The notes beneath the pieces were generated by a model. That model saw only the letters and a program-made list of their open reading frames with translations. It was not told where the DNA came from and searched no databases. Of a DNA stretch of 64,000 nt, positions 1 to 21,356 are shown piece by piece (within the stretch, counting starts at the first letter, position 1; the number at the start of each line of letters is the position of its first letter). The stretch comes from Kiritimatiellia bacterium (GTDB lineage Bacteria > Verrucomicrobiota > Kiritimatiellia > RFP12 > UBA1067). The stretch lies in NCBI GenBank assembly GCA_017525225.1, contig JAFXTB010000068.1, positions 14,526-78,525 of the forward strand, given 5' to 3'. Made by a program: the position numbers and the translations under genes.

Positions 1-1365
1 GCGCAACGGAAGACGGGCGATGCGGTCCCTCATCTCGTTGATGACCGACTCGTCTATTTCCCGTTTCCGCTTGACTTCAACAACGTATGCCGTCATAGGG
101 GTCTGTATCAGAAGATCGATTTGGCATCCCCCCTTCCCGCCCTTCGCATCGCGCCGCATGTTACGGTATGGCGCAGCAGACTCCACTATCGAATTTCCGA
201 GGTGAAGATACGGAATCAGCGACATCGCGTTGTTGACAATCAGATTCTCGAACTGAAGTCCCATCACGGCGTTCCATTCAGGAAGCGTTCCAAGCGACGC
301 GAACCTGAAACTTCCCGCCTCAATTTGCGGCTTTCGAGGCTTTACGTACTTCAGGTAGAAACGAGTGTAGTTGTCCTTCAGGCGGTATTTCCCCGTTCTC
401 ATACTTTCGCCAGTCGCGGGGTTGAGTCCGGGGTCGTCGGACAAAAATCCACCCTCCTTCAGTTCGCGGAGCGCGGACGCCATGCGTCCGCTTCGCTTCA
501 TCCCAAGGCGAACGGACAGTTCCGAGCCGGACATTGGACCGTCCGCCAACGATTCGAGAATGCGCCGCTTGAAATCCACGTCCGCACCGAATATCGGGCT
601 GAATATCGCATCGAAGTCCTTGTAGAGCTCGCCGCTCGTCGAGAAATACATCCGCCTGATGTTCTCCTCGGCGGAAAGCCCCGGATCGATTTCTTCGAGG
701 TAGCGCGGTATGCCGCCCGTGACGGACAGCACGTCAAATATCTCGCGAACGGAAACACTGTCCTTGGCGCCACGCCAGAACTCGGCGCATTCCTCGAGAT
801 TCAGTTCGGGAAGGACATAGTCACGAGAGAACCTCCCCGTAAAGCCGGTGTTGTCCAGAATGTTCTCCTTGATCCATGCCGATACCGAACCGCACACGGC
901 TACGACAAGTCTTGGGTGACGGTGGAAGTACGTCTCCCACGCGGTGCGTAATGCACCAGGATAGTTGATGTCATATCCGCCCATCCACGAGACCTCGTCC
1001 AAAAGTACGACCGTGCGCCTATCGTCGTCAATCTGTCCGTCAAGCCGATGGAACGCCTCTATCCAGTTGGCGACGGGTTCGCTTGATGCGTTGGTCTGCT
1101 CTGCGAGCGCAGATACAAAATGGTCAAGCTGCCGCTGATTTGTCATTTCCTTGTCTGGCGGCAACCCTTCAACCTCGATGTATGCGCTGGAAGTCCGCCG
1201 GGCGAATTCTCGTATCAACGTCGATTTGCCAATGCGCCGCCTCCCACGACAGGCAATAAAGGAACTCGTCGCTTTTCTCCAAAGCGATTCAAGGTCGTCA
1301 AGATACTCTCTCCGACCAATAAAATGCACGAAATTCGGATTCTTGCTGTTTTGTTTTTTTAACAT
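1..1365 (-). CDS. AAA+ ATPase (archaeal-ATPase / DUF234-type), 3' end runs off the left edge
   Basis: Not in the ORF track because it is incomplete. Hand translation from the ATG at 1365..1363 reads MLKKQNSKNPNFVHFIGRREYLDDLESLW... Walker A is 'GRRRIGKST' and a Walker B-like segment is 'VVLLDEVSWM'. The frame is open for 455 codons down to position 1. Confidence 0.75.
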   Translation of the reverse strand, partial: MLKKQNSKNPNFVHFIGRREYLDDLESLWRKATSSFIACRGRRRIGKSTLIREFARRTSSAYIEVEGLPPDKEMTNQRQLDHFVSALAEQTNASSEPVANWIEAFHRLDGQIDDDRRTVVLLDEVSWMGGYDINYPGALRTAWETYFHRHPRLVVAVCGSVSAWIKENILDNTGFTGRFSRDYVLPELNLEECAEFWRGAKDSVSVREIFDVLSVTGGIPRYLEEIDPGLSAEENIRRMYFSTSGELYKDFDAIFSPIFGADVDFKRRILESLADGPMSGSELSVRLGMKRSGRMASALRELKEGGFLSDDPGLNPATGESMRTGKYRLKDNYTRFYLKYVKPRKPQIEAGSFRFASLGTLPEWNAVMGLQFENLIVNNAMSLIPYLHLGNSIVESAAPYRNMRRDAKGGKGGCQIDLLIQTPMTAYVVEVKRKREIDESVINEMRDRIARLPLR

Positions 1366-1372
1366 ATCGCGT

Positions 1373-1401
1373 ATTATATCACTTTTTACCCAACATATCA
1401 A
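1373..1401 (-). promoter_or_regulatory. sigma70-type promoter for the ATPase gene, apparently leaderless
   Basis: Minus strand reads TTGATA (1401..1396), a 17-nt spacer, then TGATATAAT (1381..1373). Only 7 nt (acgcgat) separate the -10 from the ATG at 1365. Confidence 0.5.
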
Positions 1402-1408
1402 CAACGAA

Positions 1409-1443
1409 TGTCACGAAATTCAAAAATCCCGAATTTCGTGACA
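1409..1443 (-). terminator. 13-bp perfect inverted repeat; candidate terminator of the upstream Zn-ribbon operon or operator of the ATPase promoter
   Basis: TGTCACGAAATTC (1409-1421) and GAATTTCGTGACA (1431-1443) flank a 9-nt loop. On the minus strand the hairpin is followed by the U-rich UUCGUUGUUG and abuts the -35. Confidence 0.45.
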
Positions 1444-1604
1444 TTGCCTGCGACACTACCACAGACCTCATACATCCTTGGATGACCGCCTAACTGCGAA
1501 CGCCGCCATTTTGGCGGTGGGTTCTAACGGCCTTAAAGCCTTTACGGTCCTTAAAGCCATTGAGAACCAGCCATTTGACAAGGTTCGGACTCCGGCCGCA
1601 CCGT

Positions 1605-1829
1605 CTACGGCATCTCCACCTTCACCTTGAAGAACCTATGCAGGGAGTTGGTGGGATAACACCATTCACCGTCCAAAAGCGATTCTTTGCCATATACTTT
1701 GTAGGTTAGTATGATACCGTTGGTGTTGAGGCCTGGCGACCATGTGACATGCGGTAATCCATCCACCATTTCAATCGCCGCCGTGAAAACGCTGTTCACA
1801 TTGGTGGGATCCCTACAAGCTATCCTCAT
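1605..1829 (-). CDS. small hypothetical protein (74 aa), last gene of the Zn-ribbon operon
   Basis: Its start overlaps the upstream stop in ATGA (1826-1829) and it has the same AT-rich composition. The C-terminal '...YKVYGKESLLDGEWCYPTNSLHRFFKVKV' resembles the terminal beta-sandwich motif also ending protein 61170..61910 ('QFFKVIG'). No signal peptide. Confidence 0.5.
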   Translation of the reverse strand: MRIACRDPTNVNSVFTAAIEMVDGLPHVTWSPGLNTNGIILTYKVYGKESLLDGEWCYPTNSLHRFFKVKVEMP

Positions 1830-2740
1830 CTCCCCGTCATTTTCGTGTATCCATCTATCAACATCCTGTCATGTATAAGACTTTCCGCTATCTCCTTGGG
1901 TAGTGTTCGCGGCCGTTCAATCTGATTTGTCCTACGATAATATACTATCTGGTATTTCGTCCATGTATTAACGTCAAGAAGCATTAGATCACATATCCCA
2001 CTGGTTTCGTCGAAATATGATTCCGTCAATCCCAATCTGGAAAGGTTCTGTCGATATCTGCTCTTGATATTCTCTAGTGCACCGTTTATGGCCTCTTTCG
2101 CACTTGCAGGAGATCTGTGGTTCGATGTCATAGATGATGCTCGCGATGGATTAGATGGCGAAGAATTTAGATTCTTGTAGTAGTCCTCTCTCTCCTTCTT
2201 TAAGGCTTTATTTCTTTGGTCGGTTTCATCTATTATAGCCTGTGCCTCTGCATATGGCTTATACGGCTCATTGAGCGGTATGTATTCTGGTGATTCTGGT
2301 GAATCCACCTCTCGTTGTCGATAATCATCCTCCTTGTTACCGGACATGGTAAAAACACATATCAACAAAACTATAAAACAACCTCCGATAATCCATGCCA
2401 ACGAAATTCTGTTATTCATAGTTGATAGGCCAACTATCCGTCTCGGCAAATTCCATTCTACGTATTTTCTTCGAGCCTCCTCAAAACACTTCCTGCTAGT
2501 TTCAAAAGCGACGCCCGCGACTTTTTTGACTCTAGTTTGCTGAGACCTCCAATCAATATTCTTAACCCTTTCATAGACAGTGCCCGTTTTGACTCTAGTG
2601 GTATCTCTCATCGCCTTGGCCGTTAAAGTCCCTGCGACAAAACCCTTACCGCAGGATGCGCATTTGACGAACCTACCGTACTCGTTTTCCTCGGCGTCAT
2701 ATTCTGTTCCGCAATGGGGACATGCTATTTTCATTTGCAT
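1826..2740 (-). CDS. zinc-ribbon / single-TM membrane protein (304 aa from MQMKIACPHCG)
   Basis: N-terminal 'CPHCG-x17-CASCG' zinc ribbon and TM 'ISLAWIIGGCFIVLLICVFTM'. A strong RBS (GGAAAGGAAG) precedes the ATG at 2740, so the track start at 2788 is probably an extension. Carries the shared module 'SPEYIPLNEPYKPYAEAQAIIDE...KNLNSS'. Confidence 0.7.
   Translation of the reverse strand: MQMKIACPHCGTEYDAEENEYGRFVKCASCGKGFVAGTLTAKAMRDTTRVKTGTVYERVKNIDWRSQQTRVKKVAGVAFETSRKCFEEARRKYVEWNLPRRIVGLSTMNNRISLAWIIGGCFIVLLICVFTMSGNKEDDYRQREVDSPESPEYIPLNEPYKPYAEAQAIIDETDQRNKALKKEREDYYKNLNSSPSNPSRASSMTSNHRSPASAKEAINGALENIKSRYRQNLSRLGLTESYFDETSGICDLMLLDVNTWTKYQIVYYRRTNQIERPRTLPKEIAESLIHDRMLIDGYTKMTGR
2160..2297. 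repeat. copy 1 of a duplicated ~135-bp coding module shared by two adjacent genes
   Basis: Both ends are near-identical to 2982..3117 ('gaagaatttagattcttgt' and 'acggctcattgagcggtatgtattctgg'). The centre is diverged. Confidence 0.8.
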
Positions 2741-2875
2741 ACTTCCTTTCCTAGTATTCACAATGCGTCTCCCGTCCGACCTCCCCATATTTATTGTCTA
2801 TTGTTCTCTATCGTTCCTTCGGCGGAGATCCCTTGGCCTTAGCATCCGCCGATTTTGTAACTTCCCCTTTTCTGC

Positions 2876-5410
2876 CTAAGGCAGGCGTCCACTTGTGGTA
2901 TTTTCAGTCGCTCCCTCCATTGGAGCAGCCACTTCTGATGCCTCCTCGATTGAATGCCGTCTCCTACGCCTACGGGAAGTAGAAGAATTTAGATTCTTGT
3001 GATGGTCATCTCTCTTTTTCATTAACTCTCTGGAAGTTGCCTTAGCCTCATCAATTGCGGCCTGTTCCTCCGCAGTTGGCTTGTACGGCTCATTGAGCGG
3101 TATGTATTCTGGCGATTCCGACACAGACGCATGCTTGAGGCTCTTGTCCAGTTCCTTACGGTCATTGTTGGTTTTCTGCTGCAATATAGACTTCCCCTGA
3201 TTTACTTCTTTTACGCCACTTGATACCGATTTCTGTCCCAAATCGGACTTCTGCCCAGAAGTTTGGTTATCAGTCTCATCCTTATTACTAGAATCACCAC
3301 CTTTCATGGGTATTACATTTTGTCCGTCAGTCTTAGGTCTGTATGTAAAACCCCTGCCGTCACAACGGACACACTTGAATTTACCCTTACCGTTACAGTT
3401 CGAGCATGGCTCACCATTACCGCGTGACACTTCGCCAGAACCTCGACATCTGCCGCAAGTCTGCCATACCCCAACTTCACCACTGCCAAGGCAATTTTGA
3501 CAAGATTGTGGATAACCCCGGCCACTACCTCCGCAATTACTACATTGTTCTTTTGTGTCAAATCGTGCAGTACCATGCGAAACCCATACACGCCCCTTGC
3601 CACGACATGTTCCACATCTTTGTGTAATCCGACCAGTACCTCGGCAATGATCGCATTTGACTTGTTTTTTGACATAACCCTTACGTTCGCCATTACCACA
3701 TAGCGGGCACATTTCATGGTCATACACAACAATAGTTCCACTTCCCTTACAACGAGTACAATCAATGACACCTGTTCCACTACATAATGAACATTTCACC
3801 TTGCGTGATTCTAATTCTTTTGCCTCTTCTTCGGCACGTCGCTTCTCTTCTGCTACGGCTTTCTCAATGCGTCTTTTCTCTTCAATCGCCGCCCTTTCGA
3901 CTCGCTGACGGCTGTGAACCTTATAGCATTCCTCAAGAACACGCAATTTCACATCTAGCCGTTCCAATTCACGGTCAAGCCGTAACTGTTCAGTCTCAAT
4001 TTCTTCCAGTTTACTGGATGTCGAAAGGAGATGATTGTTATGCGGGATTACCTCCGTTTTTGTATCGGCAGTAGGATTGACTCGAATCGCCTCCTGACAC
4101 CCGAAATCATCACTCACCCCTCGGTTCAGAAATCTATTAATGTTCGCTATACGAGTTGAAATCATCTTACTTGTTTCAATGACATGATTAAGCCGTTTTT
4201 CCTTCTCTTTTTGCTCGCGTACCGCATTTTCTTCCTCTTCTGCCCTTCTTCTGGCTTCTTCTTTCTCTGACAACCGTTTGCGGGCGATTTTTTCATCCAT
4301 CTCTCGCATAACACGATAAATGCTACCATAAATCTCTACTGTACCACAGCAAACATATACACATGGCAATCCACTTAGAAGTCGAGGCCGACTTCGCCGA
4401 GTATTCAAAAACACATCACATCCTGAAAAATGTACTAGAGTTCCTGGCCGCCTATGTATTCTGCAATAAGATTGGCGAGCTTCTACTGGCCCAAGCGCTT
4501 CCAGATGGCCAGTCTCTCCATGCGTTGTATCTAACCCCGCAAAAGCATAGGCAGTTCCAATCTGGGGTCCGTTTCGTAGATTTTGAACAGAAGCGTCAAT
4601 AAGTGGACATTTTCTCTCATTGACATCTTCTATGTCGAACCAAAGAGGTCCAGTGATTAACCGAACAAGTATTGTTGCAATTATGTAACATACAATAACC
4701 ACAAATACCGAACGCCGTCTGCCTGGCGGGGATTGCATCACTCCAACATAATGGTATTGATACCAAGCACCGCAAGGTCGTGCGATGAGCAACGAGATAA
4801 TGGCTATGCTAGCGACTGATTGCATGAGAATACCGATAAAATCGTTCGGCCCCCAATTCCATACAGTTACAGCATAGATTGCACCAAGTATGCTGACGAC
4901 ATTCCCTATGTAACCGCAAATAATTGTCGTCCACCTAAACCAATTCCACTTGAGTAACATCCATGCGAAAAACATTGAAAACGAGAGCCCTATTCCCATG
5001 CCAATAGCACGTAACAACCATTGATAACCGAAAAACATTGGCGGCGGGAGACCTATTTCCATGCCAATAGCAATAGCAGGTAACCACCAGTGATAATCGA
5101 AGTCACAAGGGCAGATAGGCCACGTAGTAATTCCACCTATCGCCATCCATGCTACACAAATCCTAATCTGCCATGGTGCCGCCATAAATAATCGACGTAT
5201 ACTTTCATGCTCTGCTGAAACACGAACCTCTACGTCTTTCGGCATGTTCGTACAATCTGCAGAAGCGTCTCGTGGAATTGCAACATTCGTACCACAATAA
5301 GGACATCCCTGCATGCGTCCCTTAGCAAGATCGTCGGCAAACATTTGTTTGCCGCACTGCGGACAAATGAACTTAAAAGTCCTTCCCCCTATCTGCTTTT
5401 GAACCATCAT
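2876..5410 (-). CDS. 844-aa polytopic membrane protein: zinc ribbon, ~6 TM, coiled coil, 10x DnaJ-type CxxCxGxG cysteine-rich domain
   Basis: N-terminal 'CPQCG-x15-CPYCG' and hydrophobic segments at aa ~76-255. A Glu/Arg/Lys-rich coiled coil spans aa ~370-535. Aa 540-687 hold CSLCSGTG, CTRCKGSG, CPLCGNGE, CDHCRGTG, CGTCRGKG, CSNCGGSG, CQNCLGSG, CGRCRGSG, CSNCNGKG and CVRCDGRG. The tail has the shared module 'SPEYIPLNEPYKPTAEEQAAIDE...KNLNSS' followed by RRRRRR. Confidence 0.8.
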   Translation of the reverse strand: MMVQKQIGGRTFKFICPQCGKQMFADDLAKGRMQGCPYCGTNVAIPRDASADCTNMPKDVEVRVSAEHESIRRLFMAAPWQIRICVAWMAIGGITTWPICPCDFDYHWWLPAIAIGMEIGLPPPMFFGYQWLLRAIGMGIGLSFSMFFAWMLLKWNWFRWTTIICGYIGNVVSILGAIYAVTVWNWGPNDFIGILMQSVASIAIISLLIARPCGAWYQYHYVGVMQSPPGRRRSVFVVIVCYIIATILVRLITGPLWFDIEDVNERKCPLIDASVQNLRNGPQIGTAYAFAGLDTTHGETGHLEALGPVEARQSYCRIHRRPGTLVHFSGCDVFLNTRRSRPRLLSGLPCVYVCCGTVEIYGSIYRVMREMDEKIARKRLSEKEEARRRAEEEENAVREQKEKEKRLNHVIETSKMISTRIANINRFLNRGVSDDFGCQEAIRVNPTADTKTEVIPHNNHLLSTSSKLEEIETEQLRLDRELERLDVKLRVLEECYKVHSRQRVERAAIEEKRRIEKAVAEEKRRAEEEAKELESRKVKCSLCSGTGVIDCTRCKGSGTIVVYDHEMCPLCGNGERKGYVKKQVKCDHCRGTGRITQRCGTCRGKGRVWVSHGTARFDTKEQCSNCGGSGRGYPQSCQNCLGSGEVGVWQTCGRCRGSGEVSRGNGEPCSNCNGKGKFKCVRCDGRGFTYRPKTDGQNVIPMKGGDSSNKDETDNQTSGQKSDLGQKSVSSGVKEVNQGKSILQQKTNNDRKELDKSLKHASVSESPEYIPLNEPYKPTAEEQAAIDEAKATSRELMKKRDDHHKNLNSSTSRRRRRRHSIEEASEVAAPMEGATENTTSGRLP
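2982..3117. repeat. copy 2 of the duplicated ~135-bp coding module
   Basis: See 2160..2297. Encodes 'SESPEYIPLNEPYKPTAEEQAAIDEAKATSRELMKKRDDHHKNLNSS'. Confidence 0.8.
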
Positions 5411-6072
5411 GCACCTACTTTTTGCTGTTTAGAATAGTAGTTTAGAATAGTAATTGCAATATAACGAAATCCTAGATATCCAATTGGCATAGAGATAAAT
5501 GTTCCGATACCCATGCTTATTCGACATATCATGTCCAGATCCACACCACTGACACCAAGAATAAAACCTAGTATACCACAAAACACTACGGCTGCAATTA
5601 TCGTAGCCAAGGAATAGACAAGCCAGGCGACAAAATACTTCCATTCAGAGATATGACTTGTACCACCTAAAGGTACATAAGGTGAATATAGGTTTGACTT
5701 GGCATGCTGTTTTGGTGTATCCAACTGCTTTTCCGATTCACCGATAATAAATTTCCTTCCACACACTCCACAAATTGTACTGCGATACATGTCCTTCTTT
5801 TCTACAGTGTATTCCGCCCCACAGTACGGACATTTTGCCTGTGGACAATCGTTTTGATTCAATAACTTATTACGATTACCTTTTTGGTTTGGATCTCCTT
5901 GATAATGGTCTCGTGATATTGCCTCTGGAGGTTTTCTAACCCCAAGCCTCGATTTGCCGTGAGGCACTACAATTCCTTTACCACAGTGTGGACATTCCGC
6001 CACCTGACCACGAGACGACTCATCTGCAGCCACCATTTGCCCACATTGCGGACACTTGAATTCGATGTTCAT
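5407..6072 (-). CDS. double zinc-ribbon membrane protein (221 aa), first gene of the AT-rich operon
   Basis: 'CPQCG-x14-CPHCG' and 'CPYCG-x15-CGVCG' ribbons, plus C-terminal TM helices 'YFVAWLVYSLATIIAAVVFCGILGFILGV' and 'ISMGIGTFISMPIGYLGF'. RBS AAAGGAGAA lies upstream. Its stop overlaps the next start in ATGA (5407-5410). Confidence 0.75.
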   Translation of the reverse strand: MNIEFKCPQCGQMVAADESSRGQVAECPHCGKGIVVPHGKSRLGVRKPPEAISRDHYQGDPNQKGNRNKLLNQNDCPQAKCPYCGAEYTVEKKDMYRSTICGVCGRKFIIGESEKQLDTPKQHAKSNLYSPYVPLGGTSHISEWKYFVAWLVYSLATIIAAVVFCGILGFILGVSGVDLDMICRISMGIGTFISMPIGYLGFRYIAITILNYYSKQQKVGA

Positions 6073-6106
6073 TTTTTCGTTCTCCTTTCAAAATCCTTTT
6101 GTACCT

Positions 6107-6117
6107 ACTCTACCGAA
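6107..6117 (-). promoter_or_regulatory. weak candidate -10 (TTCGGTAGAGT) for the Zn-ribbon operon
   Basis: Degenerate version of the window-wide TTTGnTAnAAT element, 34 nt upstream of the ATG at 6072. Confidence 0.3.
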
Positions 6118-6549
6118 CAACGCCACTTCGGCACAAAAAGAAAGCGGCGCACCCTCGAAACCCTGTTTCCGAGAGGCACCACTACGAGCCTGGATGAAGC
6201 AGAAGAAAGAGGTTGCGCCGCATGATTGCCACACGGCGCAACACCGTATTTTCGCCTCATCCGTGAATAGTAGTGGTTTCCCGGAAGCTTCAATACGCTG
6301 TTGCGTATGTGTCGAAGTCCCGGATGGGATTCTTCGACCCCTCGCTCCGCTGCCCATTGCCGACACAGCTTACACGAGGTTTTGCCCTTCGCCTCCTGAT
6401 GCGGAAGCGTGAGATCACGCCACCATACCGTTGGCTTAGGACCGACAGCGGGAGCAATCGGCCTCCCGCCTATATCAAAGATCAATTCGTCCCGTTTTTG
6501 CGGAACGGTGGAATTATAGCAGATTTGCCGGTTGTCTGAAAGCCTAAAG

Positions 6550-6581
6550 ATATCCATGCAGAATTTCCTCTACATGGATAT
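6550..6581 (-). terminator. possible weak terminator after the kinase gene
   Basis: ATATCCATG (6550-6558) and CATGGATAT (6573-6581) form a 9-bp AU-rich stem with a 14-nt loop, followed by CUUUAGGCUUUC on the minus strand. Confidence 0.25.
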
Positions 6582-6614
6582 TTCCCTTTACCCCTGAAAT
6601 CTGACAGGGAAGAA

Positions 6615-8144
6615 TCAATAAGAAGAAGGAATTCCCTTCCGCATGACCTCCAAGGCGAACTTCTTGTCTTCCTTGCGTACTTCCTCGTAGGAGTCCGGGC
6701 CACGAAAGCGGAATAACGGCGTTCCGTTCCCTTTGAAGCTGTCCACCCAAATGTTCTTGTAATCACGATCCGCCGGAGGGTCGAGGTTCTTGAAGTTCAG
6801 ATAGCATGCGCCGTTGAGAACATATTTCATACTTGATTCTGGATAAGGTGTTGAGGTAAGGTTTATCAGTACCGCATGGTCATTCAGTTCAAGACTCACC
6901 TCTCGTGAACCTGTGATAGACGCAGTAATACGGCCTGGCCCAATCAGTTCAATCTTGCGTTTTCCCTCCAACTTCACTTCCCCGGGAACCACTATGTCGC
7001 GTCCACCTAACGACATATGTGTGACAAACATTCCATTTTCAAATTTAGTCTCACCTAGCTCAAGAAAGTTTTCTGCCGTTTTCGGCGCGATTTGAGAAAT
7101 TTCATTCGGTTTTATATTTTCCTCATGGGGGCTGTCCCCTTTTTCACGGGGACTGTCCCCATCGTAAATAGGTTGCGGACGCGCGGGACGCGCGTCCCTA
7201 CCGTAGTTTGCGACTGTCTCTTTTTGTGATATGACTGCTGTTTCCGGAGGCGTATCTGGTTTCGCCGGCTTAGTTGCATCTTTGCGGAAACAGATTGTTG
7301 CGAAGGCAACAACTGCCATGATGGCAATCGCGGCGAACCACCAATGCCAGACATGACGACGACGGATTGCCCTTTCAAATTCAGAGACGGAAGAATACCG
7401 TTGTTCCGGGATCGAGCAGGTCGAACGGCGGATGATCTTCGTCCATGCTTGCGGCGGATTACCACCAAAGCAGGCATTCGCCAACATACCTAGAGCATGG
7501 ATGTCGGTCGCAGGACCGATCTTGCCGCCCGCGAATTGTTCCGGTGCGGAAAACCCCGGCGTACCTACGCCTACGGCATGACCATCTACAACCGACACCG
7601 TATCGTTGCAGGCCTGTAGCGTATCGTCACTCTCCTTGGCAAGCCCCATGTCGATGAGTACGCTTTCGCCCGTAGCTGGGCGCGTCATCACATTGCGTGG
7701 CTTTATGTCCCGATGCACGAATCCACAGCGATGCAGTTCTTCAACACCCGCCGCCACATGCAGTATGAATCGCGCCACGGCCGTATCTGTTTCCGGGAGC
7801 GGCATCGGTTCCAGAAGTTCCTCGGCAATGTAGAAACGTCCGTTGGCATTACCCGCCTCATAGAACTTTGGAAACGACGCACATCGCATTTCGGCGAGAA
7901 GACGAGCCTCGCGCCGGAACCGCTCACGGGTTCTGTCGTCCGTTCTGCAAAGTATCTTCAACGCGGCTACGAAGCCTGTCGTTTCGTTTTCTGCACGATA
8001 GACCTCGGAGCTTCCGCCGCGTCCGAGAAAAGCTCGAATCATCCATCCACCTACACGGTCGCCGCAAGCAAGAATCGGCGGTTCCTCGAAAGGCCCGTGC
8101 GACCGGAGAAACCCCTCTATCTCTTCATCAGCGACATCAGACAT
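6615..8144 (-). CDS. membrane-anchored Hanks-type Ser/Thr protein kinase with extracytoplasmic C-terminal domain
   Basis: Gly-loop 'GRGGSSEVY', 'VAALK', catalytic loop 'HRDIKPRNV', 'DMGLA' (DFG variant) and 'GTPGFSAPE'. TM is 'WHWWFAAIAIMAVVAFATICF'. A ~210-aa C-terminal domain has no motif I recognise. Confidence 0.9.
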   Translation of the reverse strand: MSDVADEEIEGFLRSHGPFEEPPILACGDRVGGWMIRAFLGRGGSSEVYRAENETTGFVAALKILCRTDDRTRERFRREARLLAEMRCASFPKFYEAGNANGRFYIAEELLEPMPLPETDTAVARFILHVAAGVEELHRCGFVHRDIKPRNVMTRPATGESVLIDMGLAKESDDTLQACNDTVSVVDGHAVGVGTPGFSAPEQFAGGKIGPATDIHALGMLANACFGGNPPQAWTKIIRRSTCSIPEQRYSSVSEFERAIRRRHVWHWWFAAIAIMAVVAFATICFRKDATKPAKPDTPPETAVISQKETVANYGRDARPARPQPIYDGDSPREKGDSPHEENIKPNEISQIAPKTAENFLELGETKFENGMFVTHMSLGGRDIVVPGEVKLEGKRKIELIGPGRITASITGSREVSLELNDHAVLINLTSTPYPESSMKYVLNGACYLNFKNLDPPADRDYKNIWVDSFKGNGTPLFRFRGPDSYEEVRKEDKKFALEVMRKGIPSSY

Positions 8145-8739
8145 CCCCGACGGCCTCCAATGCCCGCACGATTCCGCGAAGCCGTGCTATCATGCGGCTC
8201 TTGGTCTTGTCGATGTTATTCCGGCTTGTCCCGTAGGCGGTGGCGACCTCTTCTGGCGCAATGCCGTCAACGGTAAGCCTCTGGAATATCTGCTTGGACT
8301 TGTCGGGGATCCTTTCGTCAGAAAGAAGTTGATGCATCGCGATTTCAAGAAGAGAAGTCCGCCAAGCGGTCTCCTCGTTTTCCGATGCCGCCTGCACGGC
8401 AGAAACCATATTCTCGCGCAAGCTGGCCTTCAGAGCACTGACCCGCTTCTCCTTCTCGTGCCACTTGAGCGCCTTCTTGTGGAGGATCCCCGTAAGATAG
8501 TTTCGGAAACGCCCAGTTTCATCCGGTGCATAACGGTAGCATGGGAGCGCTTTCGACAACACGGCAAACGTTTCCTGAACCATGTCATCGGCATCCACAT
8601 CAGGGAAATGCGTCTTAAGATACGCAAGCATCATAGGACGATACCGTGCCACAAACTCCGGCCAACGTGCGTTGCCCGCATCGGCCGATATCTCGCGCAG
8701 AAGAGTTGTAGATGTTTCTGGCACCATAAAAATCCACAA
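8137..8739 (-). CDS. ECF-type sigma-70 family factor
   Basis: Region 2-like 'DDMVQETFAVLSKALPCYRY' and region 4 HTH 'GIAPEEVATAYGTSRNNIDKTKSRMIARLR'. Its stop overlaps the kinase start by 8 nt (ATGTCTGA, 8137-8144). Confidence 0.85.
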   Translation of the reverse strand: MWIFMVPETSTTLLREISADAGNARWPEFVARYRPMMLAYLKTHFPDVDADDMVQETFAVLSKALPCYRYAPDETGRFRNYLTGILHKKALKWHEKEKRVSALKASLRENMVSAVQAASENEETAWRTSLLEIAMHQLLSDERIPDKSKQIFQRLTVDGIAPEEVATAYGTSRNNIDKTKSRMIARLRGIVRALEAVGDV

Positions 8740-8812
8740 ATACCTACCTCACCCTTTACAGGCGGGTAGAATTCATTATGCCGAACTGCGTTCCCGTTCA
8801 AGGAACGATGAA

Positions 8813-8820
8813 ATTATACA
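8813..8820 (-). promoter_or_regulatory. extended -10 (TGTATAAT) upstream of the sigma gene
   Basis: Reverse complement of attataca, about 73 nt upstream of the ATG at 8739. Confidence 0.4.
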
Positions 8821-8909
8821 CTATCGCGCTATGCGACGCAAGGGTACACGAGAAAAATCATTAGTGGCCAATTTTTCGGCAGGCCGTCTTATCAATCCCA
8901 TCCCTATCT

Positions 8910-10298
8910 TCAGAATCGCGGCAGCCTTGCCAGCGAATCCGCGAGGCCGCCTTCCCGGTTGCGAAGGCGCCACACGCGGGCATGGTCCTCGCGCAGGAAC
9001 CTGAGCCGCCTCTCATCCCGCCGGTTGCAGGCGGCATCCACGAGGTTGGCGATATGCACTATCTCCTCCGCCCACACCGCGCCCTGGCCATAGAGCGTGG
9101 GCGATGTGAACGCGCTGGCCGCATGGCGGCAGCCTTCGGCGATGGAGGAGATCTCGGCAAGGACGGAATCCGTCAATCCCGGATGGCGCGAATAGCCACG
9201 GTCGCCCGCAAGAATGCGGAAGAGCTCCGACGCATTGGCGCGCAGGGCGCCGCCACGCAGGTAGAGCGTACCCAACCGCAGCAGCGTACCGCCGAGCGGA
9301 ACCCCCATCGCGGCATCAAGCGCCTCCTCGAGGTTCATCTTCGCGGCAGAAGGCCCTTCCGACGCGAACGCGCCGCCGAGAATCAGACCCGGCAGGGATG
9401 CGGCCAATGGCTGCCAGTGCCCCCCGTCGCCCCAATCCGTCACCATGTATCCTTTCGCGCCGAACTGCCTGCCTGCGCGTTCCGCGGCCTCGAGGTTCTC
9501 GCGCATGTTCTCTATGCGCCCGGCAAGCGAATTCCAGCTGCTAGTGCCTGGGCATACGTAGAAGTCGAGTCCGGCGGCCTGGAATTTCGCCGCCTCCTCC
9601 ATGAACGGATGGTTGCCTTCATATCCCCAGTCGAGCGCGACCATGTCCTTCGGCAGCTCCGGCACGAGCTCGGGATGCTTCAGTATCATGTCGCCCCAGA
9701 ACATCGGCCTCCTGCCGTGCCTGCGGACGAGATCCGCCACCTTTTTCAGAAAGTCCAGATAGACGCGTCCGGCCCCCTTCTCCTTCACGGCGGCGGCGCT
9801 GCGTCCGCCGGGCGAGAGCAGGTCGAACGTCTCGTCGCATCCGATGTTGAAGAGCCTCGAGCCGAAGTTCGGGAGAAGCTCCGCGTAGAGGCCGTCGAGG
9901 AACTCGAGCGTGCGCGGATCCGTGGGGCAAAGCGTGGTGGGATCCTTCTTGACCGTGCCCCACGGCGTCATCGCGCCACCTTGCGGCAGCTCCGCCAGCG
10001 CGTTGTATTCAGGCAGCGAGAGCCACCTCTCCATGTGGCCGAAGGAGTTCTGGTTCGGCACAAGCTCGATGCCGTTCATGGCGCAGCAGGCATCGAGCTG
10101 GCGGATCTCGGCGGCGGTGAGGGGGGAGGCGTTGCGCCAGACGGCCTCATGCGCCGAGTAGGCGAACGCGTGCTCGATGTACAGCTGAAGCTGGTTGTAT
10201 CCAAAGCGCGCAAGCAGCTCGACGATGAGCCGCAGGGTGGACATGGTCGGAACCTTGTCCCGGCTGATGTCGAGCATATAGGCGCGGTACGTGAACAT
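8910..10298 (-). CDS. GH20-like beta-N-acetylhexosaminidase (catalytic domain)
   Basis: 'MLDISRDKVP', 'NSFGHMERW' and 'FNIGCDETFD' (D-E pair). The start is trimmed to the ATG at 10298, 2 nt after the rlmB stop; the track's 539-aa ORF overlaps rlmB with an Arg/Gly-rich extension. Confidence 0.7.
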   Translation of the reverse strand: MFTYRAYMLDISRDKVPTMSTLRLIVELLARFGYNQLQLYIEHAFAYSAHEAVWRNASPLTAAEIRQLDACCAMNGIELVPNQNSFGHMERWLSLPEYNALAELPQGGAMTPWGTVKKDPTTLCPTDPRTLEFLDGLYAELLPNFGSRLFNIGCDETFDLLSPGGRSAAAVKEKGAGRVYLDFLKKVADLVRRHGRRPMFWGDMILKHPELVPELPKDMVALDWGYEGNHPFMEEAAKFQAAGLDFYVCPGTSSWNSLAGRIENMRENLEAAERAGRQFGAKGYMVTDWGDGGHWQPLAASLPGLILGGAFASEGPSAAKMNLEEALDAAMGVPLGGTLLRLGTLYLRGGALRANASELFRILAGDRGYSRHPGLTDSVLAEISSIAEGCRHAASAFTSPTLYGQGAVWAEEIVHIANLVDAACNRRDERRLRFLREDHARVWRLRNREGGLADSLARLPRF

Positions 10299-19295: not shown

Positions 19296-20129
19296 TCAGC
19301 GCAGGTCTGCGATCGCGATGCCGTCCATGTCGTCGAACGCCTGGTTCTCGCCGCCCATCGCCCAGCAGAACGTGTAGGCGCGCGTGCCTACACCCGCGTG
19401 GATGGACCACATCGGCGAGATCACGACATCGTGGTTGTGCATCGCAAGATGGCGCGTCTCGTCGCCGGCGCCCATGAAATGGAACACGGTGGCGTCCGGC
19501 GCGATGTCGAAGTACATGTACATCTCCGTGCGACGCTCATGCGTGTGCGCGGGCATCGTGTTCCAGTTGGAACCCGGCTCCAGCTGGGTGAACCCCATCA
19601 CGAGCTGGCAGCTGTCGCACCGGCCGGGAAGTATGAACTGGTGGATGGTACGCACGTTGCAGTCCTCGACGGTTCCGAGGTGGCGGTGGTTCGCATCCTC
19701 GAAGCGGATGAGTTTCGTGGGGAATTCCCTGTGCGCCGGATATGACGCGAGATAGAACTCAGCCGGCTTCTTCGCGCTCTTCGAGGCGAAGAGCACCTTC
19801 TTCGCGCCCCTGCCCACGTACAGCACGTCGCGCGGCCGGAGGTCGAACCTGCGGCCGTCCACCGTCACCGTGCCGGCACCGCCTATGTTCAGCACGCCCA
19901 GCTCGCGGCGCTCGCAGAAGTAGTCGCTTGCAAGCTCCTTGCCCGCCGGCAGGGCCAGCTGCTTCGCAAGAGGTACCGCGAAGCCGGCGATCCCGCGCTC
20001 GACCTCGCAGTACATGAGGTTTACCTTGCCCTTCTCGCAGAGCTTCGTGTTCATGAACGCCGCGCGAAGCTCATCCGTCGTCATGCGGCGGTAGGAATTG
20101 CGGTCTGTACCGTATCTGACTTCCATCAT
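19296..20129 (-). CDS. kduI: 5-dehydro-4-deoxy-D-glucuronate isomerase
   Basis: Length is ~277 aa from MMEVRYG. 'MPAHTHERRTEMYMYF' and 'SIHAGVGT' form a cupin His cluster typical of KduI. Confidence 0.8.
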   Translation of the reverse strand: MMEVRYGTDRNSYRRMTTDELRAAFMNTKLCEKGKVNLMYCEVERGIAGFAVPLAKQLALPAGKELASDYFCERRELGVLNIGGAGTVTVDGRRFDLRPRDVLYVGRGAKKVLFASKSAKKPAEFYLASYPAHREFPTKLIRFEDANHRHLGTVEDCNVRTIHQFILPGRCDSCQLVMGFTQLEPGSNWNTMPAHTHERRTEMYMYFDIAPDATVFHFMGAGDETRHLAMHNHDVVISPMWSIHAGVGTRAYTFCWAMGGENQAFDDMDGIAIADLR

Positions 20130-20218
20130 TGTTTTGTCCTTTTCTTTTGTCTGTTCGGCCGTTGCAACAAATCCAGCATCCACAATCCACCGGCGATTAA
20201 ACCGAATGTACATGGGGA

Positions 20219-21349
20219 TTACGGAAGACGCGACAGCCAGATTCCGAAGAGCCTGTCATATACCTCATAGCCGCTGTCCGAACGATAGACGAGGTCGGCG
20301 TCGCCAAGCGACTTCAGCGCCGCCGCCACGCTCGAAGCCGCCCGAAGACCGTGCCGAGCAATGAATTCTCCGCCAGTGACCGCAGCCACGCGACCTTCCC
20401 TGGCGATTGCCTTCAGAAGCCGCGTTGCGCCATCGGAGCATCCGCGCAGAATCGCCTCGTATTCATACGCATTGCTCGCCACCAGGAATTCAACCGCATC
20501 ATTGACGTCGTTCCCTGTCGGCTTTGCCGCACCAAGCTCGAACAGGCGGTTCATGATGGTCTGCACATACCACGTGATTCCGTCGAATCTGTCGTAAACC
20601 GCCATGAATACATCGCGGTCGAGCGCCATTCCCGAATGTGCGAAATGGAGATTGGCGAAGTCAAAGTAGCGATTCCGGTCTATGGGACCTATGTGCATCA
20701 TCTGGGTTGAGTGGTAGAACGGGCGCTTGGCCGAGATGAACATTTCGCTCATCATGTGCTGCCTTGAGCCAGAGAATATGAACTGGTGTCCGGTAAGGAA
20801 CTGTATGCGGCTGCGGAGCATGGCTTCGGTTCCCTTCTCGGGATATTCGACAATCTGTTGAAATTCGTCAAGAGCTACGACCGTCCTGAATTTCAGCGAC
20901 TCGAGATAGTCGAACACCCCGGTGAGTGTCACCTCGGCTGCCGACGGCTGAACCTCGAAAGAATATTTCTGAGTTCCGAGAGTATCGAAAGTGACGGTCG
21001 GCCTGAATCCCTGGAGAAATGTGGAAGCCGCTCTCGCAACCTTGTCAAACGAAGATTCAAACGACGTGAATACGCCTGACGCAAACGCCTTGACAAAATC
21101 AGCCAGGCACTGCGTTCCGAAAATGTCCACATAAGCACACTTGTATTCACCCTGCTGCGCAAGGTGGTAGAATGCGTTTTTGACAAGCCCGCTTTTGCCC
21201 ATACGTCTCGGTGCCACAAGGGTGACATTGCGGTCATTGTTGACCGCTGAGATCAAGTCTGATGTCTCGCGCTCACGATCACAGAAGTAATCTGGACTAT
21301 GATATCCTGCAGTTAAAAATGGATTCCTTGGATTCATGTTTGGATTCAT
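20219..21349 (-). CDS. AAA+ ATPase (archaeal-ATPase type) with C-terminal wHTH-like region; second copy of this family in the window
   Basis: 'FCDRERETSDLISAV', Walker A 'APRRMGKSGL' and Walker B 'VVALDEFQ'. The DNA is visibly AT-richer than its neighbours. Confidence 0.75.
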   Translation of the reverse strand: MNPNMNPRNPFLTAGYHSPDYFCDRERETSDLISAVNNDRNVTLVAPRRMGKSGLVKNAFYHLAQQGEYKCAYVDIFGTQCLADFVKAFASGVFTSFESSFDKVARAASTFLQGFRPTVTFDTLGTQKYSFEVQPSAAEVTLTGVFDYLESLKFRTVVALDEFQQIVEYPEKGTEAMLRSRIQFLTGHQFIFSGSRQHMMSEMFISAKRPFYHSTQMMHIGPIDRNRYFDFANLHFAHSGMALDRDVFMAVYDRFDGITWYVQTIMNRLFELGAAKPTGNDVNDAVEFLVASNAYEYEAILRGCSDGATRLLKAIAREGRVAAVTGGEFIARHGLRAASSVAAALKSLGDADLVYRSDSGYEVYDRLFGIWLSRLP

Positions 21350-21356
21350 GTGTAGA

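Follow-up and report, generated by a model that had tools for sequence, protein, structure and literature searches.

What connects a sigma factor/kinase gene pair with the AT-rich operon of membrane-protein genes that begins about 0.5 kb further on the same strand is the question that this locus raises. The first-pass annotation of the 64-kb stretch of DNA analysed here (the window) had offered the operon as a possible membrane partner or regulon of the pair, and had missed that the gap (6075-6605) between the kinase gene and the first operon gene, A, is conserved. We found that the link between pair and operon runs via a conserved RNA/uORF leader located in this gap.

The sigma/kinase pair and the AT-rich operon

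The pair and the sequences 5′ of it comprise the following features.

8813..8820, minus strand: extended −10-like sequence TGTATAAT 5′ of the sigma gene, of putative function
8789-8807, minus strand: hairpin CGTTCC..GGGAACG following the extended −10-like site and resembling the hairpin after promoter P2 (below)
8137..8727, minus strand: ECF-type sigma gene, 196 aa when started at ATG 8727, the more likely start
6615..8144, minus strand: Hanks-type Ser/Thr kinase gene, 509 aa, PF00069 at E=4e-26

The mechanical sigma ORF spans 8137-8739 from a TTG start at 8739, and the 8-nt overlap with the kinase gene and its coordinates were confirmed. The sigma factor matched PF04542 (E=1e-8) and TIGR02937 (E=4e-17, above cut-off), scored below the cut-off of its best NCBIfam subfamily, TIGR02989 (Rhodopirellula/Verrucomicrobium), and shares 63-72% identity with its orthologues in loci L004 and L009. 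The extended −10-like site with its hairpin recurs before the sigma gene of locus L026. The kinase, carrying the motifs GRGGSSEV, HRDIKPRN, DMG and APE, comprises a kinase domain, a single TM segment (around residues 277-297) and an extracytoplasmic C-terminal domain, and its orthologues align over the full length, the C-terminal domain included. Modelled with AF2 (pLDDT 85), residues 365-509 form an all-beta, solenoid-like structure without a significant match in the PDB. The pair is of a known kind, namely an ECF sigma factor with a Hanks kinase and without an anti-sigma factor.

Downstream lie the operon and a flanking ATPase gene.

5407..6072, minus strand: gene A, 221 aa, two Zn ribbons and a C-terminal TM pair
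2876..5410, minus strand: gene B, 844 aa, PF00684 at E=3e-8
1826..2740 (alternatively to 2788), minus strand: gene C, 304 aa
1605..1829, minus strand: gene D, 74 aa, its start overlapping the stop of C
1..1365, minus strand: ATPase_2 (PF01637) gene, truncated by the edge of the window, and 492 aa long in locus L001

The description of A-D as a tight operon was borne out by the ATGA overlaps at 5407-5410 and 1826-1829, and an RBS of gene A was located at 6084-6088. Proteins A, B and C, as had been read by eye, open with CPxCG...CxxCG, match Zn-ribbon models (TIGR02098 above cut-off for C) and continue into TM segments, a layout displayed by 3/3 ORFs among A-C versus 0/46 elsewhere in the window. 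The module common to B and C was verified as well, with 47% identity over 92 aa (E=3e-18) and 86% identity over 71 nt at the DNA level. A Pfam profile search detected no enzymatic domain in A-D, the sole match besides the ribbons being DnaJ_CXXCXGXG (PF00684) in protein B, and profile, PADLOC, structure and PHROG searches yielded no characterised relatives of A-D.

Protein B consists of a Zn ribbon, a multi-TM block, a coiled coil, nine CxxCxGxG fingers and the C-terminal module common with C; beyond the ribbon, only P0002 and P0081 matched it among 1.84 billion representative proteins. B-like genes were seen in loci L002, L012, L025 and L027, with A-like genes sitting 5′ of them in L002 and L012. 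Protein C combines a Zn ribbon, one TM segment, the common module and a conserved C-terminal domain of ~95 aa, and every named one among its 78 homologues belongs to Kiritimatiellia. The AF2 model of its residues 210-304 (pLDDT above 94) adopts an alpha-beta4-alpha fold, for which no PDB match was found. A domain search with protein D gave nothing, and the lone homologue found adjoins an ATPase_2 gene in locus L006. The AAA ATPase gene reported beside the operon proved to be of the PF01637 ATPase_2 family, and a perfect 15-nt palindrome is present 5′ of it, at 1407-1445.

Judged by their domain composition, the cargo proteins probably act at the envelope. They would be anchored in the membrane with an N-terminal cytoplasmic Zn ribbon, and the domains that may face outward are a coiled coil, DnaJ-type Cys-rich fingers, a novel alpha-beta4-alpha domain and, in relatives, Sel1. 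The outside location is suggested by single-TM relatives of B, which carry Sel1 and CxxCxGxG domains C-terminal of the TM segment, and by the C-terminal domain of C, which is also found after hydrophobic N-termini without a ribbon; the fingers of protein B are thus probably extracytoplasmic.

The AT-richness first estimated by hand was confirmed by 500-nt windows, with 41-48% GC in the operon versus 63-70% beyond 9 kb. In 1-kb bins the operon falls 4.3-5.8 sd under the rest of the window, and GC3 is 0.33-0.43 in A-C versus 0.83-0.84 in the GH20 and SpoU genes nearby. The low-GC tract extends further than first noted, taking in the kinase and sigma genes (53-55% GC) and the ATPase gene, and continues ~0.6 kb past the left edge of the window, as seen in L001. 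This compositional shift is large and was found again in every locus.

The leader between the kinase gene and gene A

The leader is ~470 nt long, of which ~370 nt make up the structured RNA, and contains these elements.

6576..6605, minus strand: Block 1, GTCAGATTT-N11-GGRAATATCC, candidate sigma-dependent promoter or operator
6105..6570, minus strand: uORF of 150 codons, with SD GAGG at 6567-6570 and AUG at 6555-6557, continuing past the terminator
6513..6540, minus strand: P2, sigma-70-type promoter TTCAGA-16-TATAAT with TG, inside the uORF
6488..6507, minus strand: hairpin H1 at the 5′ end of the P2 transcript, 8 pairs, 5 with compensatory changes
6469-6483, minus strand: conserved single-stranded motif GATCTTTGAYATNGG, 3′ of H1
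6129..6312, minus strand: 3′ domain of the leader RNA, covariance model 172.7 bits, E=2e-37
6135..6185, minus strand: alternative intrinsic-terminator hairpin GUGGUGCCUCUCGGAAAC / GUUUCGAGGGUGCGCC, then a U-run at 6135-6144

Block 1 is a single site in the window. It was present in 15/15 sigma/kinase-linked loci checked, plus L024, and absent in six of the seven loci without sigma/kinase. Parsing it revealed no recognisable ECF −35/−10 elements; a −10 located in its GAAATAT would bring the transcription start almost onto the SD. Block 1 was not found 5′ of any sigma gene in the loci examined, so there is no sign of autoregulation. P2 is the joint-best promoter-like match within 1400-9000 (10/12) and the sole one with TG, and its TGNTAYAAT is kept in 14 of the 17 distinct loci whose sequence extends there, being missing in three.

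Comparative folding predicts that the leader is a conserved structured RNA, which is previously undescribed. The pairing of H1 was derived by RNAalifold over 15 sequences. The 3′ domain runs from a small hairpin (6294-6307) through a rod of four nested helices, the apical one a 14-bp hairpin at 6212-6242, to a GGGTGCGCCGC segment and the U-run. Across 19 distinct sequences, 43 pairs were determined in the 3′ domain, of which 20 had changed on both sides in a compensatory manner, and 94.8% of the cells were paired versus 33-52% in slid controls; the observed value was matched by 0/500 shuffles on four of five measures and by 1/500 on the fifth. Covariance model scores reached 155-200 bits on the forward strand versus 35-45 on the reverse, and the leader of the window itself gave a folding z of −6.35. 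The more distant loci L016 and L038 matched the model weakly, with position unchanged.

The terminator hairpin and rod helices 2-3 are mutually exclusive. The hairpin appears in the single-sequence MFE fold, a scan also reports a terminator-like site, and the consensus 10-bp stem fits 16/16 sequences, the 3′ arm being set by the search pattern and so displaying no covariation. As the 5′ arm is also used by the rod, the rod may itself be the antiterminator.

Of the 16 distinct Block 1 loci, 15 keep the frame that begins at the uORF AUG open throughout the RNA, the exception being L024, where Block 1 is present and the uORF ends early. No stop was found in this frame in 10 loci and one, 41-42 nt before the U-run, in 4 loci, while the other frames of Block 1 loci contain 1-8 stops and every frame of Block 1-negative loci 3-9; loci L016, L036 and L037 agree with an open uORF frame. 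One could then read the uORF as a normal protein-coding gene, with a hypothetical product of 115-180 aa and an incidental RNA structure, given that SD and AUG are kept, the first ~35 aa are conserved in a long open frame, GAYATHGG varies at third codon positions, and both L004 (146 aa) and L036 (181 aa) have a gene annotated at this place. We consider this extremely unlikely. The frame in which the conserved 3′-domain DNA is read differs between loci, all three being used for the uORF 3′ end including the terminator segment; conservation tracks base pairing, with the 20 compensatory pairs, and the RNA is equally conserved where all frames are closed; and the conserved N-terminal codons coincide with the −35/−10, H1 and the RNA motif, which persist in closed-frame loci.

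Linkage of the pair, the leader and a variable cargo

All six loci of close sigma orthologues with enough sequence have an adjoining AT-rich Zn-ribbon cassette, versus none for three distant sigma homologues (47-48% identity), and sigma/kinase plus cassette occur at unrelated chromosomal sites in ruminant- and human-gut Kiritimatiellia. When loci were fetched via C-domain homologues, the leader RNA was directly 5′ of the cassette in 6/6 independent loci, four of which carry sigma/kinase. A metagenome scan for the RNA pattern, blind to proteins, yielded 15 loci, with a kinase gene directly upstream in 8 and a co-oriented cargo gene in 15/15, starting mostly 20-70 nt past the U-run. These loci lack phylogenetic independence and derive from a small number of data sets on the ruminant and human gut. 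Leader and cargo without sigma/kinase were found in at least six loci (L006, L030, L031, L033, L035 and L038), and the cargo varies: a B-like gene and the C-domain form a recurrent core, whereas type I R-M, BREX, FRG or CBS/LRR genes take its place in some loci. Of the earlier reading, the genetic linkage of pair and cassette was supported and the four genes as a fixed operon were not, the set being one version of the variable cargo. The module, namely sigma/kinase, leader and variable AT-rich cargo, has so far been found only in gut Kiritimatiellia, and its leader probably controls whether the exchangeable cargo operon, which looks foreign, is expressed.

This linkage could alternatively reflect an insertion hotspot, in which an independent stable ncRNA gene gathers AT-rich islands at its 3′ side, as tRNA or tmRNA genes gather foreign islands, and the pair is a neighbour with a separate regulon. 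The sigma-70-type promoter and terminator-like end of the RNA, its presence without sigma/kinase, typical island content among the other cargo (type I R-M, BREX BrxC, Schlafen/AlbA_2, FRG) and a cargo GC of 42-51% versus 60-67% in the flanks of most long loci would all conform to such a hotspot. We rate it as unlikely, since neither an integrase nor att-like direct repeats were found at island borders, the first cargo gene is always on the strand of the RNA, its start so close to the U-run leaves no room for a promoter, and an unrelated neighbour would not explain why Block 1, SD-AUG and the open frame track sigma/kinase. Equally concerned with the cargo is the idea of a defence island, where A-D and the ATPase would act against phages or predators and the pair would sense infection or envelope damage. 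In its favour, the ATPase matched PADLOC PDC-S27 at E=5e-74, the cargo position of sister loci holds or adjoins R-M, BREX, FRG, Schlafen and PIN genes, and a T6SS directed against amoebae is under the control of an ECF43/kinase pair (PMC8999054). Its chances appear rather slim, as the few PADLOC matches of A-D (E>=0.001) cover the Zn ribbon only, A-D have no nuclease, NTPase or other effector domain and no informative PHROG match, the RNA pattern was absent from the viral contigs searched, and the PD-T4-6 matches of the kinase in PADLOC represent generic kinase-domain similarity. A defence role bears on what the cargo does and would fit the regulatory model as well.

A further alternative makes the Zn-ribbon proteins, above all C, anti-sigma factors in the membrane or partners that signal directly with the pair; the ribbon of C is cytoplasmic, a single TM segment and a domain on the outside follow, and C is encoded adjacent to the pair. 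We find this very improbable: A-D contain neither the HxxxCxxC motif, in agreement with the first reading, nor an anti-sigma-domain match; as many as five ribbon proteins occur in one locus, and ribbon proteins also in loci without sigma (L006, L038); the C-terminal domain of C exists without the ribbon; and ECF groups paired with kinases are typically without anti-sigma factors (PMC7826278).

Proposed working and comparison with known systems

Taken together, we propose, with about even confidence, that 1-8820 is a copy of a module in which sigma factor and membrane kinase are translationally coupled, the kinase-activated sigma factor acts at Block 1, and translation of the uORF is coupled to read-through into the cargo. 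The beta-solenoid-like C-terminal domain of the kinase would sense an extracytoplasmic cue, and the kinase would activate the sigma factor, presumably via phosphorylation by analogy with other ECF/kinase pairs without anti-sigma factors. The activated sigma factor may use Block 1 (6576-6605), as suggested by their co-occurrence alone. Block 1 transcripts would carry the SD and AUG of the 150-codon uORF that spans leader and terminator, and ribosomes on the uORF may suppress the terminator (6135-6185) so that RNA polymerase enters A-D, a step suggested by the conserved open frame and its differing frames between loci. Because P2 is inside the uORF, P2 transcripts could not be translated; they would form the rod-like RNA and either end at the terminator or continue past it at a basal level. 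Termination could also be favoured by a ribosome that lags behind and melts the rod, so the effect may have either sign.

Among known pairs, ECF43 (EcfP/PknT of Vibrio parahaemolyticus and EcfK/PknS of Xanthomonas citri) likewise combines an ECF sigma factor and a transmembrane Hanks kinase without an anti-sigma gene, ECF59-62, ECF217, ECF267 and ECF283 being further kinase-associated groups in the same comparison. Activation by phosphorylation has experimental evidence for two kinase-paired ECF sigmas, and EcfK has an adjacent T6SS cluster as its likely target, as adjacent genes are here (PMC7826278; PMC8999054). The present pair is not of the ECF43 type: its region 2.2 retains an acidic DADD, where ECF43 is defined by an S/T-rich replacement, and the mechanism of ECF43 therefore cannot be carried over directly. 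None of the known groups has been described with a structured RNA/uORF leader or swappable cargo.

Intrinsic terminators within or just after an ORF are suppressed by ribosomes, and the pyrBI attenuator lies inside its own leader ORF (PMC4824070; PMC5021804). Judged from sequence, the uORF likewise reaches through or to the edge of the terminator, where a ribosome following closely would keep the hairpin from forming, but it has 115-180 codons versus 44 in pyrBI, overlies a large covarying RNA, and the presence of its start on the transcript appears to be set by which of two promoters fires. Riboswitch/attenuator expression platforms and the processive-antitermination leaders EAR, put and ops/RfaH similarly place a long conserved structured 5′ leader, with mutually exclusive helices that include a terminator arm, before a long, often horizontally acquired operon, antitermination being putative here; unlike these, the present leader had no match among 4227 Rfam families.

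Plant Orange/BSD2-type holdases are DnaJ-type CxxCxGxG zinc-finger proteins without a J domain. Protein B, which has no J domain, nine CxxCxGxG fingers and PF00684 above cut-off, may be likened to them and to anti-TRAP, whose model it matches below cut-off; it differs in its coiled coil and in its anchoring in the membrane, behind a Zn ribbon and multi-TM block. Finally, the integron platform, a promoter with exchangeable promoterless cassettes behind it, also places variable co-oriented genes of foreign composition after a conserved expression platform. The present module has no integrase and only a single structured element in each locus, where integrons have an attC for every cassette, and its G-U-rich, strand-specific pairing points to an RNA rather than to single-stranded DNA.

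The sigma factor/kinase pair and the low-GC tract

All six ORFs that the first-pass annotation had placed here, together with the 8-nt overlap of the sigma factor and kinase genes and the two ATGA overlaps, were recovered at their claimed positions, every one on the minus strand. The four products of the operon following the pair, i.e. the cargo, are designated A to D.

Genes of the module (window coordinates)
8137-8739, minus: sigma gene (ORF); ATG 8727 is the likelier start by N-terminal alignment with orthologues
6615-8144, minus: kinase gene, overlapping the sigma gene by 8 nt
5407-6072, minus: A, joined to B by an ATGA overlap
2876-5410, minus: B (ORF)
1826-2740, minus: C, joined to D by an ATGA overlap
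1605-1829, minus: D (ORF)

The operon was AT-rich as claimed, with 41-48% GC versus 63-70% beyond 9 kb; its 1-kb bins lay 4.3-5.8 sd under the GC of the other 55 bins of the window, and GC3 was 0.33-0.43 in A-C versus 0.83-0.84 in the adjacent GH20 and SpoU genes. The low-GC tract exceeded the operon outlined earlier: it took in the flanking ATPase gene, the sigma (55% GC) and kinase (53% GC) genes were intermediate, and it ended ∼0.6 kb past the window's left edge, as seen on L001, a 39.6-kb contig from a ruminant gastrointestinal metagenome with this same sequence. Integrases or att-like direct repeats bounding this island were not found. The flanking AAA ATPase proved to be a PF01637 ATPase_2 protein that matched PDC-S27 (E=5e-74), a candidate single-gene system in PADLOC 2.0. 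Between D and this gene lies a perfect 15-nt inverted repeat, AATGTCACGAAATTC-N9-GAATTTCGTGACATT (1407-1445), of operator-like character, suggesting control of the ATPase apart from that of A-D; in locus L006 (13292-14580), the sole D homologue sits at the 3′ terminus of a further ATPase_2-like gene, so D may travel with the ATPase and not with A-C. Other low-GC 1-kb bins (54-58% versus a mean of 63%) occurred at 20001-22000, 42001-43000, 55001-56000 and 59001-61000, and AT skew was unusually high (+0.30) at 58-60 kb; no leader, Block 1 (the conserved cis-element just 3′ of the kinase gene) or zinc-ribbon/TM ORF was found in those bins.

ECF (group 4) sigma factors are defined by having only the sigma2 and sigma4 regions in about 200 aa and by an ECF profile match. 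The sigma product was of this type: it matched PF04542 (E=1e-8) and, over residues 28-188 of its 200-aa ORF, TIGR02937 (62.3 bits, cut-off 42.9). As in kinase-associated ECFs, the kinase was conserved beside the sigma, with the 8-nt overlap kept in at least 15 loci, and no anti-sigma domain occurred among the neighbours. Kinase-associated groups comprise ECF43, 59-62, 217, 267 and 283, and ECF/kinase pairs are abundant in PVC bacteria. By gene features the pair is a further member of this known kind, and no numbered ECF group is given to it. ECF43, the hallmark of which is the replacement of the acidic DAED of sigma2.2 by S/T residues that are phosphorylated (PMC8999054), was rejected because the motif stays acidic (DADD in the window); it reads DAGD in L004 and EAED in L009. 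The kinase (PF00069, E=4e-26) carries GRGGSSEV, AALK, HRDIKPRN, DMG (a DFG variant) and APE, and is predicted to be a Hanks-type Ser/Thr kinase from its Gly-rich loop, catalytic Lys, HRDxKxxN, DFG and APE elements. Its outside domain gave a confident all-beta, solenoid-like AF2 model, with no significant match by Foldseek against the PDB (best E=0.026), and its match to PADLOC PD-T4-6 came via the generic kinase domain alone.

The leader between kinase and cargo

An alignment across loci displayed strongly conserved blocks in the ∼0.5-kb region between the kinase gene and the cargo, of which P2, a putative internal promoter, scored joint-best among the promoter-like matches there and alone has TG.

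Elements of the leader region (window coordinates)
6576-6605, minus: Block 1, GTCAGATTT-N11-GGRAATATCC
AUG 6557, minus: GGAGG-bearing hairpin followed by this AUG (alignment)
6105-6557, minus: uORF with SD and AUG, spanning the terminator-like hairpin and U-run at 6135-6185
6513-6540, minus: P2, TTCAGA-16-TATAAT with TG (sigma-70-type match)
6488-6507, minus: hairpin H1 (compensatory changes)
between H1 and the middle section, minus: motif GATCTTTGAYATNGG (alignment)
between motif GATCTTTGAYATNGG and the 3′ domain, minus: variable GC-rich middle section (alignment)
6129-6312, minus: 3′ domain of ∼185 nt, a small hairpin and a rod of four nested helices

Across 19 distinct sequences, 94.8% of the 3′-domain cells were paired versus 33-52% with slid partners, both-side changes were counted in 20 of 43 pairs versus 4-9 in controls, and the covariation score was 0.39 versus about 0.09; on four of the five measures all 500 shuffles fell short of the observed value, on the fifth all but one. 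The covariance model gave exactly one strong match per locus, on the cargo strand (155-200 bits versus 35-45 on the reverse strand) and upstream of the first cargo gene, not between cassettes; in the more distant L016 and L038 this position gave weak matches, and no second leader copy was found in the window. The whole window leader folded at -189.5 kcal/mol (z = -6.35). Searching Rfam 15 yielded no match with E<=1 in window 1-10000 and chance-level matches alone on the L013 leader, and the RNA is probably a new family, with covariation support on par with curated Rfam families and a source in a poorly studied gut phylum. The RNA pattern was absent from viral contigs, so a phage origin is not supported. 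Second, weak model matches (30-32 bits) were noted in L025 (9244-9409, minus) and L027 (3765-3931, plus), in each case some hundreds of nt upstream of the main leader; a decayed tandem copy of the rod could explain them.

The rod is followed by GGGTGCGCCGC and a U-run. Base pairing of GGGTGCGCCGC to the 3′ strand of rod helices 2-3 is possible and would form a terminator-like hairpin right before the U-run, to the exclusion of the rod; this terminator arm is fixed by the search pattern of the leader scan. The first cargo gene was always encoded on the leader's strand and usually started 20-70 nt past the U-run, so the RNA is read as the 5′ leader of the cargo, not as a separate gene. Three other readings of the region were rejected: as the terminator of the kinase gene, because the region also occurs without the kinase and in L009 lies away from it; as an attC-like DNA hairpin, in view of pairing that is strand-specific and rich in G-U; and as a conventional coding gene, in view of reading frames that change from locus to locus.

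Block 1, a single site in the window, was present in all 15 sigma/kinase-linked loci examined, including L009 with the pair downstream of the cassette, and also in L024, the upstream sequence of which is too short to score the pair; it was missing from L006, L030, L031, L033, L035 and L038, i.e. the loci without the pair. Wherever Block 1 was present an SD and AUG followed, and of the 16 distinct loci with Block 1 all but L024, hence 15, had a leader ORF running over the terminator. Among 14 tabulated loci, including L032 and L034 as duplicates or near-duplicates, the uORF frame was stop-free to the U-run in 10, while in four a lone stop fell within the terminator's 5′ arm, 41-42 nt ahead of the U-run; the other two frames contained 1-8 stops, and Block 1-negative leaders had 3-9 stops in all three frames. 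The uORFs of L016, L036 and L037 displayed the open-frame pattern likewise. The product was conserved only over its first ∼35 residues, the codons of which coincide with the -35 and -10 elements of P2, H1 and the GATCTTTGA motif, all persisting in ORF-free leaders, and loci differ in the frame (0, 1 or 2) in which the terminator segment is read. Thus, it is the openness of the frame and not the encoded product that appears conserved, and an open frame kept over a conserved RNA in differing frames is unusual. Since the -10 element of P2 lies inside the uORF, the AUG would be carried only by transcripts begun upstream, at or near Block 1. Judged by its sequence, the gap between the kinase gene and A is a conserved, putatively regulatory leader that tracks the sigma/kinase pair.

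Upstream of the sigma gene itself lies a sigma-70-type TGTATAAT (8813-8820) without Block 1. As Block 1 was absent upstream of any sigma gene, an autoregulatory reading was rejected, and control of the sigma would fit a post-translational mode. After TGTATAAT comes a hairpin, CGTTCC..GGGAACG (TGTATAAT and hairpin together at window 8789-8820; also in L026), close to the H1 that follows P2, so that the sigma and kinase genes look bracketed by two promoter-plus-hairpin copies. Upstream of the sigma gene in L034 (∼1300-1500), a fragment resembles the 5′/middle part of an L006-type leader (TTGATCTTTTCCATACTCCCGGGCGC...), a hint that a leader was there first and the pair joined it by insertion or recombination. 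Further features in this surrounding were CCCCRTT heptamer repeats in a run just upstream of Block 1 (L009, 2084-2200), three ∼35-nt repeats (ACCCGTCAAAAATATGCA...) upstream of the TGATACAAT of the sigma gene (L009, 7190-7500), a Y1 (IS200/IS605-type) transposase gene just upstream of the sigma gene in a human-gut locus (L036, 2424-3503), and a PIN toxin-antitoxin pair in place of the sigma/kinase pair and the leader 5′ half (L006, 7084-7754).

Distribution of the module and its variable cargo

Loci were sampled independently in three ways, via proteins with the C-terminal domain of C (the C domain), via the sigma, and via an intergenic DNA pattern blind to proteins, and the three samplings agree. 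The C-domain proteins led to six independent loci (L003-5/L039, L006-8, L009-11, L036, L037 and L038), of which all six carried a ribbon/TM cassette and four a close sigma/kinase pair. The sigma led to at least nine GTDB loci; ribbon/TM genes followed the kinase gene in the close-orthologue loci L013, L015 and L016, and were found likewise in L012 (the L003-5 locus, already counted), the window and L009, versus none of three distant sigma homologues (47-48% identity), while contigs L014 and L020 end too early to be scored. The DNA pattern led to at least 15 metagenome loci, with the kinase directly upstream in eight, absent in five, and upstream sequence too short in two. The GTDB-representative sigma relatives came from sheep, goat and rumen MAGs labelled Kiritimatiellae, "Lentisphaerae" or Verrucomicrobia, and one locus from a human (Hadza) gut sample. 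A cassette next to close sigma/kinase orthologues recurs across gut loci, as found in the neighbourhood comparison that the first-pass annotation had proposed; the four-gene set as a fixed unit did not hold up, because the cargo differs among loci. The flanking housekeeping genes differ as well (GH20/SpoU in the window, HAD/ABC and pseudouridine synthase in L012, ddl-ftsQAZ in L009), so the module is not kept by a conserved neighbourhood. An A-like then a B-like gene was found in L002 and L012, a B-like gene then a C-domain protein in L012, L025 and L027, and a Sel1/CxxCxGxG protein (738-769 aa) then a C-domain protein in L036-L038; elsewhere the cargo was an FRG-domain gene, CBS plus a 2496-aa BspA-LRR protein, BREX BrxC, or a type I R-M system with Sel1 and Schlafen/AlbA_2 genes. 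Cargo GC was 42-51% versus 60-67% in the flanks in most long loci.

A, B and C do open with CPxCG...CxxCG ribbons followed by hydrophobic segments, as had been reported, and such ribbon/TM ORFs made up 3/3 in the operon versus 0/46 elsewhere in the window. Zinc ribbons of the MJ0042-type/Zn_ribbon_4-5 kind are defined by two N-terminal CxxC knuckles about 15-20 residues apart, and A-C are of this kind; C scored 23.2 bits on TIGR02098 (cut-off 20.9), A, B and C matched PF13717, PF13719 and PF21344 near or under the cut-offs of those models, and the AF2 ribbon matched LysW with a probability of 0.97-0.98 (Foldseek against the PDB). The module said to be common to two products was located in B and C (47% identity over 92 aa, E=3e-18) and is still 86% identical as DNA. 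Beyond the ribbons, profile searches on A-D and a structure search with C identified no already characterised family, and profile searches, in line with the earlier reading, found no enzymatic signature; the only further domain was nine DnaJ-type CxxCxGxG fingers in B (PF00684, 34.2 bits, cut-off 32.7), and B as a DnaJ/Hsp40 was rejected, since it has the finger domain only, the J domain is absent and full-length DnaJ models scored far under their cut-offs.

The C-terminal domain of C (∼95 aa) was modelled as alpha-beta4-alpha with AF2 pLDDT >94 and had no significant Foldseek match in the PDB (best E=0.08); C has 78 relatives from metagenomes and MAGs, and all source-named ones are from Kiritimatiellae/Kiritimatiellia. 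An exhaustive HMMER search of 1.84 billion representative proteins returned two that match B beyond the ribbon, and a word-indexed homology search with B likewise gave two proteins only, missing the B-like genes in the fetched loci, by which the claim that B is unique was rejected; B appears rare and nearly an orphan. The recorded B gene starts at the second Met and not at the start of the 844-aa ORF. Within B, a 44-nt direct repeat at 63-nt spacing (window 4966-5072; L001 10336-10442) corresponds to a tandem 21-aa duplication in the TM block (AIGMEIGLPPPMFFG / AIGMGIGLSFSMFFA). L005 (2341-4455), which represents the L012 locus in variant form, has the B-like gene broken into two parts encoding 222 and 479 aa; the longer product is P0081, one of just two distant matches to the membrane region of B. 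In single-TM relatives of B the Sel1 and CxxCxGxG domains are C-terminal to the TM segment, the C domain also occurs behind a hydrophobic N-terminus in ribbon-free proteins, and in C the module common to B and C comes after the TM segment; the ribbon is likely inside and the remainder outside.

Two functional readings of the cargo were weighed against this picture. An anti-sigma role of C, for which it had been put forward as a candidate, was not upheld: ZAS anti-sigma factors have an N-terminal anti-sigma domain with HxxxCxxC and pair 1:1 with the sigma, while A-D carry no HxxxCxxC motif, as had been noted, no anti-sigma profile was matched, and the ribbon proteins are several per locus and also occur without a sigma. 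That A-D form an anti-phage system is a minority alternative, consistent with the PDC-S27 ATPase beside them and with the R-M, BREX, FRG and PIN genes in sister loci, but A-D had no meaningful PADLOC match, and PADLOC, NCBIfam and PHROGs together gave nothing informative for them, without defence or phage signature. Because enzymatic, anti-sigma, defence and phage signatures are all absent, we take A-D as an envelope-exposed protein set.

Proposed control of the cargo and comparison with known systems

To our knowledge experimental work has touched only two ECF/kinase pairs, and what such pairs control is established in few cases; the present locus offers a compact, testable output made of a cis-element, a uORF, a terminator and a cargo operon. 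Alongside the observed linkage, RNA structure, terminator-like alternative, open frame and co-occurrence of Block 1 with the pair, a mechanism can be proposed. The kinase would activate the sigma, by analogy to ECF/kinase pairs lacking an anti-sigma factor, for two sigmas of which experimental evidence of activation by phosphorylation was obtained (PMC7826278; PMC8999054). The sigma would use Block 1 as promoter, the hexamers of which are not assignable to -35/-10. Ribosomes are established to block intrinsic terminators inside, or few bases past, an ORF, and the pyrBI attenuator sits within its leader ORF (PMC4824070; PMC5021804); on this ground, ribosomes on the uORF are proposed to suppress the terminator, by which RNA polymerase would enter A-D, while transcripts from P2 would be untranslatable and would fold, allowing basal read-through only. 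The rod itself may alternatively be an antiterminator, in which case the sign of the translation effect could go either way. Leaders without the sigma/kinase pair must work differently.

Put together with suppression of the terminator by uORF ribosomes, these steps give a joint reading that we regard as tentative and lean somewhat against holding in full, namely that the leader represents a novel class of large riboregulators in bacteria (∼320-450 nt), with translation decided by the choice of promoter: an upstream promoter dependent on the ECF sigma would add the uORF start, translation through the rod and terminator would switch the swappable, xenogeneic cargo on, and the constitutive internal promoter would yield untranslated, terminated RNA only. 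If true, this would be a clean case of selection for translation as such and of promoter choice governing attenuation; gut Kiritimatiellia would use a single sigma/kinase-gated, integron-like dock for horizontally exchanged envelope/defence genes, and the dominant zinc-ribbon/CxxCxGxG/Sel1/alpha-beta4-alpha cassette would be a new envelope system. The variable AT-rich cargo, with orphan membrane proteins here and R-M and BREX genes in sister loci, points to a common dock from which genes exchanged horizontally are expressed, with relevance to the expression of foreign low-GC DNA in high-GC gut bacteria.

Integrons are defined by an IntI integrase, an attI site and one attC per cassette; no integrase occurred in any locus table, and each locus had one strong structured element. 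In Rfam and the searched literature, no description was found of the leader RNA/uORF and its coupling to swappable cargo. The nearest organisational analogue is an integron-like expression dock, and the nearest mechanistic one is pyrBI-type attenuation, which has in common with the present locus the ORF spanning the terminator, here recognised from sequence alone; on defining features, the locus would stand outside both classes, and it represents overall a new form of ECF/kinase signalling, including an RNA family that is probably new to Rfam.
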